From NCBI GenBank assembly GCA_947478845.1, contig CANJXC010000007.1, positions 49,939 to 113,938 on the forward strand: 64,000 nt of DNA. The letters run 5' to 3'. Source of the stretch: Spirochaetales bacterium. Its GTDB lineage: Bacteria > Spirochaetota > Spirochaetia > JABEVK01. The notes beneath the pieces are model-generated. The model saw only the letters and a list, made by a program, of their open reading frames with translations, was not told the origin of the DNA and searched no databases. The position numbers were made by a program, and so were the translations under genes. Numbering within the stretch: the stretch's first letter is position 1; the number at the start of each line of letters is the position of its first letter. Shown here piece after piece: positions 61,524 to 64,000 of this stretch.

Positions 61524-62891
61524 TCAGTTCTTCGAGAAATACACTTTGTCAAGTTGTGCGCTAAAGTTAGCCGAGCCTCCGCTGGCCATGATTTGGAAGG
61601 GAACGTTTACCACAGCAAGGTTGAGCCCTGTGAATCTGCTCAAGGGAATCACCACTTCGTGGTAGGCCCCGTCGGCAACGACGGAAAGGCTGTAGAGATT
61701 CACAGGGGATTCCAAGCCGACCATTTTCAGGGATACCTTTACCCGAAAGTTCGGGTCGGTGCTGTTGGTCTTGAGGCTGAAGCGAAGGTTGCTGTACCGA
61801 GTGAGGTCGTTTTCAGCAGAGACAAACGAGAAGCCTTGCCCGTCGCCGGACAAATTAAGCGTAAAACTGTTGTTTCCCTCCACCGCATCGGCGGCAACGG
61901 CGTGGGCTGTCAGGCTGCCACCCGCAAAGGGCGAAGGATTTGTCAGGCCGTTCACGACTGCCGAAGTTCCGCTCAGGGCACTGGGAACATCGACATAGAG
62001 GTAGAGGTTGTCGGCGACGACTATGGCGTTCTTGAACGTGGCTATCGCCGTTTCTAGAGTCGTTCTCGCCGAATTGTATTGAGCGGCAGTTGCGGCGGAA
62101 TCGGTACTCGCCGCGGTTGCCACCGCGATCGCGTTCGCAAACGGGGTCATGGCCGCAGGGTCGACTTGTCCCACACTGCTACCACCGCTTGTAGAGTTTT
62201 TCAGCGTATTGGCGGCCGCAAGGGCCACGAGAAGGCTGGTCTTGCTGGCACCCAGCGGGGTGACTTTTGCCTCTGTAAAGGTGGCTGTCGCCGTGCCCAA
62301 AGCCGTGATCGCCGAGTCAACCTGGTTATAGGTTGCCGACGGGTTACCGTGCACAATTTGTGCCGCGCCAATAGCGTCTGAGTAGGAGGAACTCACCGAC
62401 AAAGGAACCATGCCCACACTGGTGCCCACGCCCGTGGCCTGCAGCAGGATGACGTCGGCCGTGAGGGCGAGCTTCAATTCGAGTTTCTTGGCGTCCACGG
62501 TGACAAAAGTCATCGTAGAACTGCCAAATCGGGTTTTGTCGGATGCCGAAGTCGCCGTAATGGTGGCAAGGCCGCCCGCCAACGCCGTGACTAGTCCCGT
62601 CTCGCTCACGAGCGCAACGCTTGGTGAACTGGTCGCCCAGGTTAACTTCTTGGCACTGGAAGCTGAAGGATCTATCACCGCAGTCAACTGCAAGGTGTTC
62701 CCAACCCCTACCGTCGCTGTGATGGGCGACACCGTAATGTTGGTTATGGTCGTTCCCGCGAAAGGCTGGGTAGCAGAATCACAGCCACCGAGCACCGCAA
62801 GACAACAGACCGAGGCGCCAAGGGTTGTAAACCAGGCGTGTTTCTGGAAAACACCTGGGCGACCGCGGTTTGGGTTCAATTCTTCGTCCAA
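61524..62891 (-). CDS. Surface lipoprotein with a Big_2 (bacterial Ig-like) domain and a C-terminal putative carbohydrate-binding domain
   Basis: Lipobox LGGC. Big_2-like segment (ITVSPITATVGVGNTLQLTAVIDPSASSAKKLTWATSSPSVALVSETGLVTALAGGLATITA). The C-terminal ~120 aa are shared with the next protein and end in YFSKN. Confidence 0.6.
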   Translation of the reverse strand: MDEELNPNRGRPGVFQKHAWFTTLGASVCCLAVLGGCDSATQPFAGTTITNITVSPITATVGVGNTLQLTAVIDPSASSAKKLTWATSSPSVALVSETGLVTALAGGLATITATSASDKTRFGSSTMTFVTVDAKKLELKLALTADVILLQATGVGTSVGMVPLSVSSSYSDAIGAAQIVHGNPSATYNQVDSAITALGTATATFTEAKVTPLGASKTSLLVALAAANTLKNSTSGGSSVGQVDPAAMTPFANAIAVATAASTDSAATAAQYNSARTTLETAIATFKNAIVVADNLYLYVDVPSALSGTSAVVNGLTNPSPFAGGSLTAHAVAADAVEGNNSFTLNLSGDGQGFSFVSAENDLTRYSNLRFSLKTNSTDPNFRVKVSLKMVGLESPVNLYSLSVVADGAYHEVVIPLSRFTGLNLAVVNVPFQIMASGGSANFSAQLDKVYFSKN

Positions 62892-64000
62892 TAAATGTTG
62901 TCGAGGTCAATTTCGGGGATAGTTCCAGAGTTTGTGGAGGACGTGTTGCCGGTGCCTCCCGAAGCCACCGTGCCAAACACGTCGTTGATAACAAAGGGCT
63001 GGGTGACCATGCTCAAATTGAGTTTCGCCGAGCTCGGTTGCGCGTAGGCTGGCTTAGCTTTCGCAGCAATGGTTGCAATGGGTATGCTGACGTCGTGCCA
63101 AGCCCCATCGCGTGAATACCCGTAGGAGTTCGAGCTCGGATCAACAACCAGGTACACGTCCATTGCGTTGTTCTCCACCGGCGATCCGGTCTGGAAGCCA
63201 AACTTCAGGCTGCCTTGGTAAGTGGTCTTGATGGAAAAGTGCAGGTGTCCATTAGCGAACGCTGAGAGGTCTTCCGCGAACGTGTTAGACCCTGCAGAAT
63301 TAACCAGCGTCAGAAAGTAACCCCAACCCCACGAAGCGGGGGCGGGCTGTACCTGTCGATATTTCGTGCTCGAGGCAGCGCCTCCACCGGTGGTAATTTC
63401 GGTGCCAGTCGCCGTCGCTGGGCTGTTCCAGGCATACCAATTGGTGGCCGACACCGGCACTGAAATTGAGCCCGCTACCGCCGTCAAGGCATCGGCGTAA
63501 ACTAAGTACTCATTGTTGGCTGGAGGAGAGTTGACGGTGAGCGTCGTGTAGCAAAGCGCCGAAGCATCGGTGTAGGTCAGACTGGCGGTGACACTTTCGT
63601 TGGCGGGGAGGGTAATCGATTGTCCTCCTAGAGTCACGGTGTTGGCCGTGGCAAACGTGGAATATAGGCTGTAGCGCGCGCTGCGGCTCACGTCAAACAG
63701 GCCCCACCCGTCGTCACCGCCCTTCCACGGTTCGTCGAACGCCTCGAAATAGACAATGCTTTTCGGACCGGTTGTCCAACTTTCAAGGCGGTCAAGGTAC
63801 ATTTTCTGGTTTACCGGGTGCGCCATGTTGTACTCTTCGCTGTTGCTGGAGTTGGTGGCGACGGCTTTCCAGCCGGTTTCTCCAATCGCGATGGGAAGTG
63901 ACGAATATCCTTGGGCAGTGGCGTAGTCTGCGACCGCTTTGTAGGTGGCTTTGAGGTCGACAATGGCTGCATCCATCATGGCTGCCGGCCGCGCCGAAGC
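62876..64000 (-). CDS. Clan GH-A glycosidase (GH17-like beta-1,3-glucanase candidate) with a C-terminal domain homologous to the preceding protein; 5' partial at the window edge
   Basis: IAIGETGW resembles the GH17/GH-A nucleophile motif (xxExGWPS). Only about 33 aa precede it, so the ORF must continue beyond position 64000; the frame is open to the window end. The C-terminus ends in YWTKN. Confidence 0.45.
   Translation of the reverse strand, partial: ASARPAAMMDAAIVDLKATYKAVADYATAQGYSSLPIAIGETGWKAVATNSSNSEEYNMAHPVNQKMYLDRLESWTTGPKSIVYFEAFDEPWKGGDDGWGLFDVSRSARYSLYSTFATANTVTLGGQSITLPANESVTASLTYTDASALCYTTLTVNSPPANNEYLVYADALTAVAGSISVPVSATNWYAWNSPATATGTEITTGGGAASSTKYRQVQPAPASWGWGYFLTLVNSAGSNTFAEDLSAFANGHLHFSIKTTYQGSLKFGFQTGSPVENNAMDVYLVVDPSSNSYGYSRDGAWHDVSIPIATIAAKAKPAYAQPSSAKLNLSMVTQPFVINDVFGTVASGGTGNTSSTNSGTIPEIDLDNIYWTKN

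Follow-up and report, generated by a model that had tools for sequence, protein, structure and literature searches.

A C-terminal β-jelly-roll module shared by a GH17 enzyme and a Big_2 lipoprotein of a spirochaetal β-1,3-glucan locus, probably a divergent relative of CBM11 and CBM30

Results

Two adjacent lipoprotein genes in a β-1,3-glucan utilization locus

The window, by which we mean the whole 64,000-nucleotide stretch of Spirochaetales DNA that was analyzed, contains a putative β-1,3-glucan utilization operon comprising a GH17 enzyme (p2), a noncatalytic lipoprotein (p1), a GH16 enzyme, a GH149 phosphorylase, and an ABC importer (Table 1). The presence of the GH149 phosphorylase fixes the substrate of the locus. 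We found no sigma-70-like promoter or convincing terminator between the GH17, p1, and GH16 genes, which probably form one operon and would be cotranscribed. There was no SusC/D in the part of the locus within the window or in a near-identical contig (L001), and uptake is assigned to the ABC importer.

Table 1. Coordinates of the genes and features discussed, in window positions
Feature	Position	Strand	Basis or remark
p2, 3' part of GH17 β-1,3-glucanase lipoprotein gene	62876..64000, cut by window end	-	Pfam PF00332; PDB 6fcg, E 6e-10
ctd2, GH17-type C-terminal β-sandwich module, 212 aa	62879..63514	-	conserved W..W, WGWG, DGAWH; last strand LDNIYW
Linker between GH17 catalytic domain and ctd2, ~46 aa, low confidence	63515..63652	-	pLDDT 57-73 at model residues 1-40
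p1 ORF, 455 aa	61524..62891	-	noncatalytic lipoprotein
p1 lipoprotein signal peptide, lipobox VLGG-C37	62781..62891	-	read from sequence
p1 Big_2 Ig-like domain, aa 49-117	62541..62747	-	Big_2 HMM, E 6e-17
p1 Ala/Thr-rich helical FIVAR-like spacer, aa ~130-294	62010..62504	-	FIVAR E 1e-4, under cut-off
ctd1, p1-type C-terminal β-sandwich module, 161 aa	61527..62009	-	terminus LDKVYFSKN; DGQGF replaces WGWG; lacks W..W
GH16 laminarinase-type lipoprotein, 380 aa	60304..61446	-	77 nt downstream of p1, same strand
GH149 β-1,3-glucan phosphorylase	56945..60199	+	NCBIfam NF058639, 1230 bits; PDB 6hq6, E 6e-246
Sugar ABC importer: solute-binding protein and two permeases	53846..56948	+	
Second GH16 (272 aa) and ROK-family regulator	51721..53704	-	

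The complete p2, read in contig L001 and in P0047 (99% identical to p2), is a 629-aa protein with the lipobox LAMGC. The first-pass annotation had assigned its ETGW-containing domain to a glycosidase, and this was borne out: the full-length protein scored 32.8 bits against PF00332 (cut-off 28.2), and the alignment with the Formosa GH17 structure 6fcg spans IGETGW.

The description of p1 as a Big_2 module behind a lipobox also held. The top PDB match of its Big_2 domain was the Big_2 domain of the β-1,3-glucanase BglH (7quz, E 1e-12), and, in keeping with the FIVAR-like spacer, the hits P0014 and P0034 contain PF07554. An alternative TTG start at position 62879 shares the sequence TTGA with the p2 stop, giving a start/stop overlap. 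p1 is rare, with only two close homologs among 5.8 billion proteins searched; P0001 is 98% identical to it, and its ortholog P0002 carries the lipobox LLSN-C. p1 combines the features of the SGBP class (lipobox, Big_2 domain, FIVAR-like spacer, β-sandwich C-terminal domain, and glycan-locus setting) and looks like an SGBP-like protein that would be exposed at the surface.

The C-terminal regions of p1 and p2 are homologous

The two adjacent minus-strand genes had been noted to end in homologous regions, and three comparisons confirmed this. BLASTP aligned ctd1 and ctd2 at 30% identity over 145 aa (E 1e-8); tblastn with either domain across the whole window returned the other copy as the sole match above noise (E 2e-7); and hhalign, comparing the p1-type alignment with a set of 121 C-terminal regions from GH17 proteins, gave a probability of 96.3% (E 1.6e-9) over 150 columns, extending to the last residue. 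The similarity did not, then, disappear under proper alignment statistics, which the first-pass annotation had named as a possible outcome. The motifs it had listed were present (DL..Y/F..L.F, FS(L/I)KT, DGA(Y/W)H.V.IP, (V/Q)PF.I, ASGG, and LD(K/N)(V/I)Y(F/W)(S/T)KN), and the first strand common to both copies reads NLYLYVD/NEYLVYAD. The shared domain was real but longer than the ~120 aa originally estimated, covering about 161 aa in p1 and 212 aa in p2.

ctd1 also matched dozens of further GH17 C-terminal domains at 27-42 bits, and the similarity is therefore family-wide and not the product of a recent local duplication. Recent duplication or gene conversion between p1 and p2 was rejected, with a distant betaproteobacterial GH17 C-terminal domain (P0114) scoring 42 bits vs 41.6 bits for the neighboring copy. 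ctd1 was much closer to copies borne by GH16 enzymes of Comamonadaceae (41-43% identity) than to the GH17 C-terminal domains.

The two genes carry two subtypes of the module. GH17-type domains have invariant Trp and Gly positions. Of 35 columns with at least 90% conservation among them, ctd1 keeps only 14; none of the four Trp in the W..W and WGWG motifs remains, and the loop bearing a conserved Tyr is lost as well. The p1 sub-branch retains an aromatic residue directly after G-x-G (DGQGF, DGSGW, or DGAGW), which could stand in for the lost Trp. HMMs built from GH17 C-terminal regions alone scored p1 weakly (8-13 bits), and establishing the link requires profile-profile comparison or a broader family profile (A7). 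Nearby CBM-like domains, namely the N- and C-domains of a 484-aa protein and an internal domain of a GH16 enzyme (L003 GH16_689), were considered as further copies and dropped (hhalign at most 68% for the 484-aa C-domain and 0.1-21% for the others).

Fold and family placement

Structure prediction yielded a β-sandwich for both C-terminal domains, in the case of p1 with moderate confidence (pLDDT 65). The predicted β-jelly roll could be superposed on CBM11 (1v0a), and homology to CBM11 was found at the profile level: searched against the PDB, the A7 profile reached CBM11 at E 2.5e-8 over positions 23-157 of 162, CBM30 at E 4e-5, and the ExoP C-terminal domain at E 0.014, and hhalign of A7 against CBM11 gave a probability of 93.9%. 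A profile made from GH17 domains only showed no significant match to CBM11.

Neither window copy reached a Pfam cut-off. For CBM_11 (PF03425, gathering score 27 bits), p1 and p2 had no match at E ≤ 1, and higher scores came from p1-type relatives (26 bits for P0262 and 22.9 bits for the GH16 enzyme of L010) and from the C-domain of the 484-aa protein of L001 (19 bits). For Exop_C (PF18559, cut-off 26.1 bits), the p1 domain alone scored 24.2 bits, 21.4 bits within the full protein, and P0002 scored 19.3 bits; relatives found with the p1-type profile passed at 69.2, 60.8, and 45.3 bits. For SGBP_B_XBD (PF18329, cut-off 26.4 bits), p2 scored 20.2 bits, and 11 of 22 C-terminal domains matched at E ≤ 0.01 (best 5.4e-7). 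The subthreshold Pfam matches of both window copies all fell within the clan of these families. The earlier remark that the domain could not be matched to a named family is thus only just true, the two window copies scoring slightly below the cut-offs. Alignment to a well-known CBM, which had been put forward as grounds for refuting the observation, was largely found, because the Exop_C and CBM30 models recognize relatives above cut-off and CBM11 is detected with the family profile.

The aromatic residues of the CtCBM11 cleft are Tyr22, Tyr53, and Tyr129. In the sequence alignment, the conserved Trp positions of the family lie at or beside Tyr22 and Tyr53, and the Tyr-bearing loop of the GH17-type domains aligns where Tyr129 lies. 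p1 lacks two of these three positions, the equivalent of the Trp at Tyr53 and the Tyr-bearing loop. Our literature search found no usable description of the GH17 C-terminal domain or of the CBM11 cleft residues.

Distribution and architectures of relatives

Fusion of GH17 to this C-terminal domain was found in 71 genomes and in at least 1079 clusters at 95-100% coverage, mostly from freshwater Burkholderiales and nearly all with lipoboxes. In all 120 GH17 homologs listed, the domain is C-terminal and the chain ends 1-4 residues past the conserved motif.

The p1-type copy is mostly borne by GH16 laminarinases. Its profile retrieved 119 proteins at E ≤ 1e-3 from a library of representatives; the best 54 of these included 28 with Exop_C, 13 with CBM30, and 10 with CBM_11 matches, which coincide with the stretch matched by the p1-type profile, and 23 were GH16 laminarinases. 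These relatives often carry the domain internally or in two to eight copies. Internal copies occur in 13 of the 43 relatives with long matches, several with Big_7/PKD domains and then a genuine Por_Secre_tail behind them; the tail of the Bacteroidota relatives is a separate element downstream of the domain.

Discussion

Homologous C-terminal regions end two neighboring lipoproteins of this locus, and we conclude that they are probably two subtypes of a mobile β-jelly-roll module with a glucan-binding role, forming a divergent branch of the CBM11/CBM30/ExoP-C ('galactose-binding-like') superfamily, whose members are type-B glycan-binding domains. The first-pass annotation had offered two readings, a CBM-like β-glucan-binding module and a C-terminal anchoring or sorting signal. 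The former is supported by the profile matches to CBM11 and CBM30, by the frequency of GH16 among the best relatives, and by the GH17/GH16/GH149/ABC importer context, all of which suggest a module that probably binds β-glucan.

A signal for sorting, anchoring, or secretion at the extreme C terminus (a T9SS C-terminal domain or another tag) would fit the placement of the domain in both window proteins and in the listed GH17 homologs, with the motif at most four residues from the end. We consider this reading highly implausible. In the predicted folds, Y(F/W)(S/T)KN forms the last β-strand of a ~160-210-aa sandwich together with a variable tail of 1-4 residues; both window proteins do end as described, but 'KN' is not conserved family-wide (other endings are YWSK, YWTQN, YWDHH, and YYSKP). 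Each protein has a lipoprotein signal of its own, the host is a freshwater spirochaete that clusters with Spirochaetales MAGs, and neither p1 nor p2 matched Por_Secre_tail (PF18962) or an NCBIfam sorting domain. Since the domain is internal, repeated, or placed before a T9SS tail in relatives, a sorting role is not supported. Another possibility is that the GH17 domain is an integral structural extension which shapes or caps the cleft (setting, for example, exo or endo mode or product length) or stabilizes the barrel, with the p1 copy a degenerate derivative put to other use. The extreme conservation of the fusion and the invariant Trp and Gly positions are what such an extension would predict; however, the ~45-aa segment between barrel and module was modeled with low confidence, as for a linker, and the family's occurrence on GH16 enzymes, on noncatalytic proteins, and in tandem arrays means that it behaves as an independent module, which makes a structural extension unlikely.

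For p1 itself, the domain might instead no longer bind glycan and serve in protein-protein interaction or scaffolding, a CIA30-like use of the fold, docking p1 to the GH17 or GH16 enzyme or to an outer-membrane component and organizing a surface complex. The absence from p1 of the conserved Trp residues and the Tyr loop, the presence of CIA30 among the structural and profile neighbors, and the rarity of p1 all point in this direction. Against it, the closest p1-type relatives are C-terminal on GH16 laminarinases, where the domain is most simply read as a CBM; the aromatic after G-x-G is kept; and Ig-like domains with a C-terminal binding domain on noncatalytic lipoproteins are typical of SGBPs. 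We regard a scaffold as quite unlikely, and prefer a binding module in both proteins, although the p1 copy may bind weakly, bind another ligand, or not bind glycan.

In the GH17 enzyme, which would be a cell-surface lipoprotein, a flexible linker would tether the module to the catalytic barrel, and the module most likely keeps β-1,3-glucan (laminarin-type) chains by the active site via its conserved Trp/Tyr cleft. In p1, the module would sit at the far end of a stalk made of the lipid anchor, the Big_2 domain, and the helical spacer, and from this distal position we infer an SGBP-like accessory protein that displays a glycan-binding (or degenerate, possibly respecialized) module at the cell surface. 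The surface proteins would bind and cut glucan, the ABC importer would take up the oligosaccharides, and GH149 would phosphorolyze them.

Comparison with known systems shows both likeness and distance. CtCBM11 is a type-B β-glucan binder (PMC4416756). CBM11 from Clostridium thermocellum Lic26A-Cel5E (1v0a; PF03425) shows only 14-17% identity, and its ligands are β-1,4 and β-1,3-1,4 glucans, whereas the locus context here is β-1,3-glucan. As CBM11 and CBM30 bind β-1,4 and mixed-linkage glucans and not laminarin, the β-1,3-glucan ligand is proposed from context alone. CBM30 (C. thermocellum Cel9D-Cel44A; 2c24/1wmx; PF21582) is a cellulosomal cellulase module of Firmicutes, and p1 itself has no CBM30 match. 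Domain X of the Pseudoalteromonas GH3 exo-1,3/1,4-β-glucanase ExoP (3f95; PF18559) sits on GH3, in contrast to the GH17, GH16, or noncatalytic stalk that bears window-type modules; domain X is not known to bind a ligand. In its architecture p1 resembles the laminarin SGBP of C. forsetii, itself a lipoprotein whose Ig-like modules precede CBMs (bioRxiv 10.1101/2023.09.07.556657), but that protein has four tandem CBMs (X584, 8qx6) and p1 a single, partly degenerate module; the window domains show no sequence similarity to the X584 founding member (PDB 8qx6). Unlike the Bacteroidota SGBPs (SGBP-B xyloglucan-binding domain, PF18329), p1 comes from a spirochaete whose locus, as far as it lies in the window and in L001, encodes an ABC importer but no SusC/D pair.

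Laminarin-type β-1,3-glucans account for a major flux of algal carbon, and their capture by non-Bacteroidota freshwater bacteria is much less studied than the marine PUL systems. The domain described here, though divergent, is most likely an ordinary component of a laminarin locus and belongs to an already known superfamily; conceptually the advance is modest, since its fold, superfamily, and modular logic are all familiar. As a tentative extension, the GH17-type domain (W..W, WGWG, DGAWH, and YW end) and the p1/GH16-type domain might represent two new CBM families at the CAZy level, or deep CBM11/30 subfamilies, specific for β-1,3-glucan (laminarin/chrysolaminarin) and acting as a main means of substrate capture in freshwater Burkholderiales, Spirochaetales, and Geothrix. 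In that case, p1 might be a spirochaetal, Sus-independent SGBP analogue feeding the ABC importer and GH149 pathway. More than 1000 GH17 lipoproteins carry the unannotated ~210-aa tail, which, together with the related domain of GH16 enzymes and p1, offers inexpensive and clearly delimited material for binding assays; one or two laminarin-binding CBM families or subfamilies could join annotation pipelines, the gain being better annotation of freshwater laminarin loci. Both subtypes recur together in a β-1,3-glucan setting in a Comamonadaceae locus, which encodes GH16 with a p1-type C-terminal domain, GH81, GH17 with its C-terminal domain, and GH30.

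Homology and gene organization of p1 and p2

The adjacent genes p1, encoding a noncatalytic lipoprotein, and p2, encoding a GH17 beta-1,3-glucanase lipoprotein, had been described in a first-pass annotation as ending in clearly homologous domains of ~120 aa. Over 145 aa, the two C termini are 30% identical (E 1e-8). When the p1-type alignment was compared as a profile with that of 121 GH17 C-terminal regions, the probability was 96.3% (E 1.6e-9) and the match took in 150 columns, beginning at a first strand common to both (NLYLYVD/NEYLVYAD) and reaching the last residue. These values confirm the similarity, and the homology is real and statistically sound; the proposed length was too short, as the C-terminal domain (CTD) spans about 161 aa in p1 (ctd1) and about 212 aa in p2 (ctd2). 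Across the whole 64-kb window, each CTD matches only its partner copy. A recent copying of ctd1 from its neighbor is ruled out, since distant GH17 CTDs resemble it as much as p2 does and the CTDs of GH16 lipoproteins from Comamonadaceae and Rhodoferax loci are considerably closer (41-43% identity).

The pairing of Big_2 with a lipobox in p1 was borne out, and the ETGW-containing partner proved to be GH17, its alignment to the Formosa GH17 structure (PDB 6fcg; E 6e-10) running through IGETGW. Full-length p2 has 629 aa and a lipobox (LAMG-C), as seen in the near-identical (98-99%) lake-metagenome contigs L001 and L002 and the homolog P0047. The closest solved structure for the p1 Big_2 is the Big_2 of the beta-1,3-glucanase BglH (PDB 7quz, E 1e-12).

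Features of the window and of related contigs
Feature	Position	Strand	Details
p1	61524-62891	(-)	455 aa; same direction as p2
p1 signal			Lipoprotein, ..CCLAVLGG-C37
p1 Big_2	aa 49-117; window 62541-62747	(-)	E 6e-17
p1 helical stretch			Ala/Thr-rich; sub-threshold FIVAR matches; then C-terminal region
p2	62876 to window end	(-)	3' part of GH17 gene; PF00332
GH17/p1 overlap	62876-62891	(-)	TTGA
GH149 ORF	56876-60199; likely start 56945	(+)	NCBIfam NF058639; PDB 6hq6
L001 partial ORF	L001:3-782		C terminus ..AELYAGYTF
L001 lipoprotein	L001:808-2262		484 aa
L003 signal-peptide protein	L003:3908-5191		427 aa; between GH16 and GH149
L010 locus (Comamonadaceae MAG)	L010:3073-11990		GH16 + p1-type CTD, GH81, unannotated 443-aa protein, GH17+CTD, GH30

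The GH17 stop codon TGA shares bases with an in-frame p1 TTG as TTGA; the annotated p1 TTG lies 12 nt upstream, giving a 16-nt overlap with GH17. With two candidate TTG codons, the true p1 start is ambiguous. The overlap suggests translational coupling. A 77-nt gap separates p1 from GH16, and the intergenic sequence between GH17, p1, and GH16 contained no promoter and no convincing terminator; together with the TTGA overlap, this suggests that the three genes form one operon.

The surrounding locus has beta-1,3-glucan content: a ROK regulator, a GH16, an ABC solute-binding protein with two permeases, a 1084-1107-aa protein, a GH16 lipoprotein, p1, and GH17+CTD. The 1084-1107-aa ORF lacks a Pfam match; its sequence identifies it as a predicted GH149 beta-1,3-glucan phosphorylase (NF058639 equivalog, 1230 bits against a 1150 cut-off; 6hq6, E 6e-246). 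Going by the L001 call, its listed TTG start probably lies 23 codons upstream of the true one.

The CTD belongs to the CBM11/CBM30/Exop_C superfamily

We modeled the post-catalytic 258 aa of p2 with AlphaFold2 from a 113-sequence alignment (pLDDT 90.6, pTM 0.84). The first ~40 residues were of low confidence and linker-like; the rest forms an all-beta domain, with the EIDLDNIYW motif as its final strand (248-256 of 258).

Fold table for the p2 CTD
Match	PDB	Score
CBM30	2c24	14.4
CBM11	1v0a	14.1
CBM8	7t7z	12.6
CIA30-domain protein	7zkq	12.4
ExoP extra C-terminal domain	3f95	11.8
CBM29, CBM44, CBM22		about 10.5
Laminarin-binding CBM X584	8qx6	10.4
SGBP-B proteins		8-9.5

The claim that the domain fits no named family held only for direct Pfam matching of the window copies, with ctd1 at 24.2 bits against Exop_C (cut-off 26.1) and ctd2 at 20.2 bits against SGBP_B_XBD (cut-off 26.4); all their matches were just sub-cut-off and in the CBM11/CBM30/Exop_C-type clan. 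Scanning 22 CTDs gave SGBP_B_XBD in 11, CBM30 in eight, and Exop_C in five. When the p1-type profile was run exhaustively with HMMER against 1.84 billion representatives, 119 proteins matched at E <= 1e-3, 18 of them at E <= 1e-10. Among the best 54 of these 119, 23 are GH16 enzymes, and Pfam matches overlapping the same stretch as the profile match were to Exop_C (28, maximum 69 bits), CBM30 (13), CBM_11 (10), SGBP_B_XBD (10), and CIA30 (7).

Aligning 29 relatives' domains, both window copies included, gave a family profile (A7) with the common layout GVY.E, EG, (W).G.G, DLS.Y..L.F.IK, YG...DG.WH.V.IPLS.F.G.DL..V...F, and VD(N/D)(V/I)Y(F/W). This profile reaches CBM11 (E 2.5e-8, positions 23-157 of 162; hhalign probability 93.9%), CBM30 (E 4e-5), and the ExoP domain (E 0.014), and the CTD is therefore not an unprecedented fold or family but a divergent branch of the CBM11/CBM30/Exop_C superfamily. 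Alignment to a well-known CBM had been named as what would make the domain ordinary; because profile methods tie it to these families, it largely is. The CBM-like reading is supported by fold, homology, and locus context.

The same annotation had offered a C-terminal anchoring or sorting signal as an alternative, which we now regard as highly improbable. The beta-sandwich has the terminal motif as its last strand, and the residues that follow vary (YWSK, YWTQN, YWDHH, YYSKP, YFSVK). The domain behaves as a module: among long-match relatives the copy is C-terminal in 30 and internal in 13, many relatives carry two to eight matched stretches, and in Bacteroidota it sits mid-protein in GH16 enzymes, followed by Big_7/PKD and a genuine Por_Secre_tail. 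Neither p1 nor p2 matched Por_Secre_tail or an NCBIfam sorting domain, and the host is a spirochaete.

Candidate binding residues and function

Using as reference the 35 columns at least 90% conserved in 19 GH17-type CTDs, we found 14 of them preserved in p1. W..W and WGWG have lost all four of their Trp to deletion or replacement (DGQGF), DGAYH stands where the GH17-type has DGAWH, and the conserved-Tyr loop is missing. Aligned by sequence with CBM11, the conserved family Trp positions fall at or beside Tyr22 and Tyr53; the loop of the GH17-type copies falls where Tyr129 sits, the three tyrosines being cleft residues of CBM11. The p1/GH16 sub-branch retains an aromatic directly after G-x-G. 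Binding by the p1 module may therefore be of another kind, weak, or absent altogether.

We consider that ctd2 probably binds some beta-glucan; for ctd1 the call is tentative, somewhat short of even. The invariant aromatics of the GH17-type module would line a cleft that holds a glucan chain, giving the enzyme a firmer grip on polymeric substrate. [quoted passage not shown] The p1 design (lipoprotein, Ig-like, CBM) parallels the C. forsetii laminarin SGBP (bioRxiv 10.1101/2023.09.07.556657) and Bacteroides SGBP-B. Both sub-types may merit CBM (sub)family status of their own.

Distribution and neighboring genes

The GH17+CTD fusion forms at least 1079 90%-identity clusters (95-100% query coverage, 41-63% identity) with members of 565-640 aa, almost all bearing a lipobox; the chain ends within three residues of the query's aligned end in all 120 homologs listed. 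We found no published description of this GH17 C-terminal tail in the searchable literature. Among GTDB genomes we counted 71 loci with the fusion, mostly of freshwater Burkholderiales (Limnohabitans, Rhodoferax, Rubrivivax, Paucibacter, Roseateles, Leptothrix, Polaromonas). Spirochaetales MAGs and Geothrix carry it as well, and Marinimicrobia, Cloacimonadota, Bacteroidales, and Myxococcota gave weaker matches. L010 is a betaproteobacterial laminarin locus with both CTD sub-types. p1 is rare: among 5.8 billion proteins, only P0001 (98%) and P0002 (58%) are full-length homologs. Its 58% ortholog, in L003, lies in a beta-glucan locus, flanked by two GH16 genes with GH149 near; the 427-aa protein there has a sub-threshold GH39 match (E 6e-5). 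Other proteins of the window cluster at >90% identity with Spirochaetales MAG entries; the housekeeping products of 24514-26043 and 40846-42180, for example, belong as exact members to 90% clusters containing MEI8093606.1 and MEI8093391.1. Freshwater lake metagenomes (JGI 3300009163, 3300010885) contain near-identical DNA. The window thus comes from a freshwater spirochaete that is uncultured.

Just past the window's right end, L001 encodes a third lipoprotein, with an N-terminal CBM-like domain, a Big_2 (again best matched by BglH 7quz, E 5e-11), and, at the C terminus, a CBM11-like domain whose last residues are IYLDNIYFKP. The type of N-domain it carries, weakly matching laminarin CBM X584 (8qx6, E 0.0035), occurs in two to eight tandem copies beside GH17+CTD in the majority of loci from Betaproteobacteria, Geothrix, and Bacteroidales (five in L024, eight in L072), and proteins of this type are probably the main multi-CBM SGBP of GH17+CTD loci. 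The partial ORF preceding the lipoprotein genes had no Pfam or NCBIfam match; because its aromatic C terminus resembles that of an outer-membrane beta-barrel, it may be the locus's outer-membrane glycan channel.
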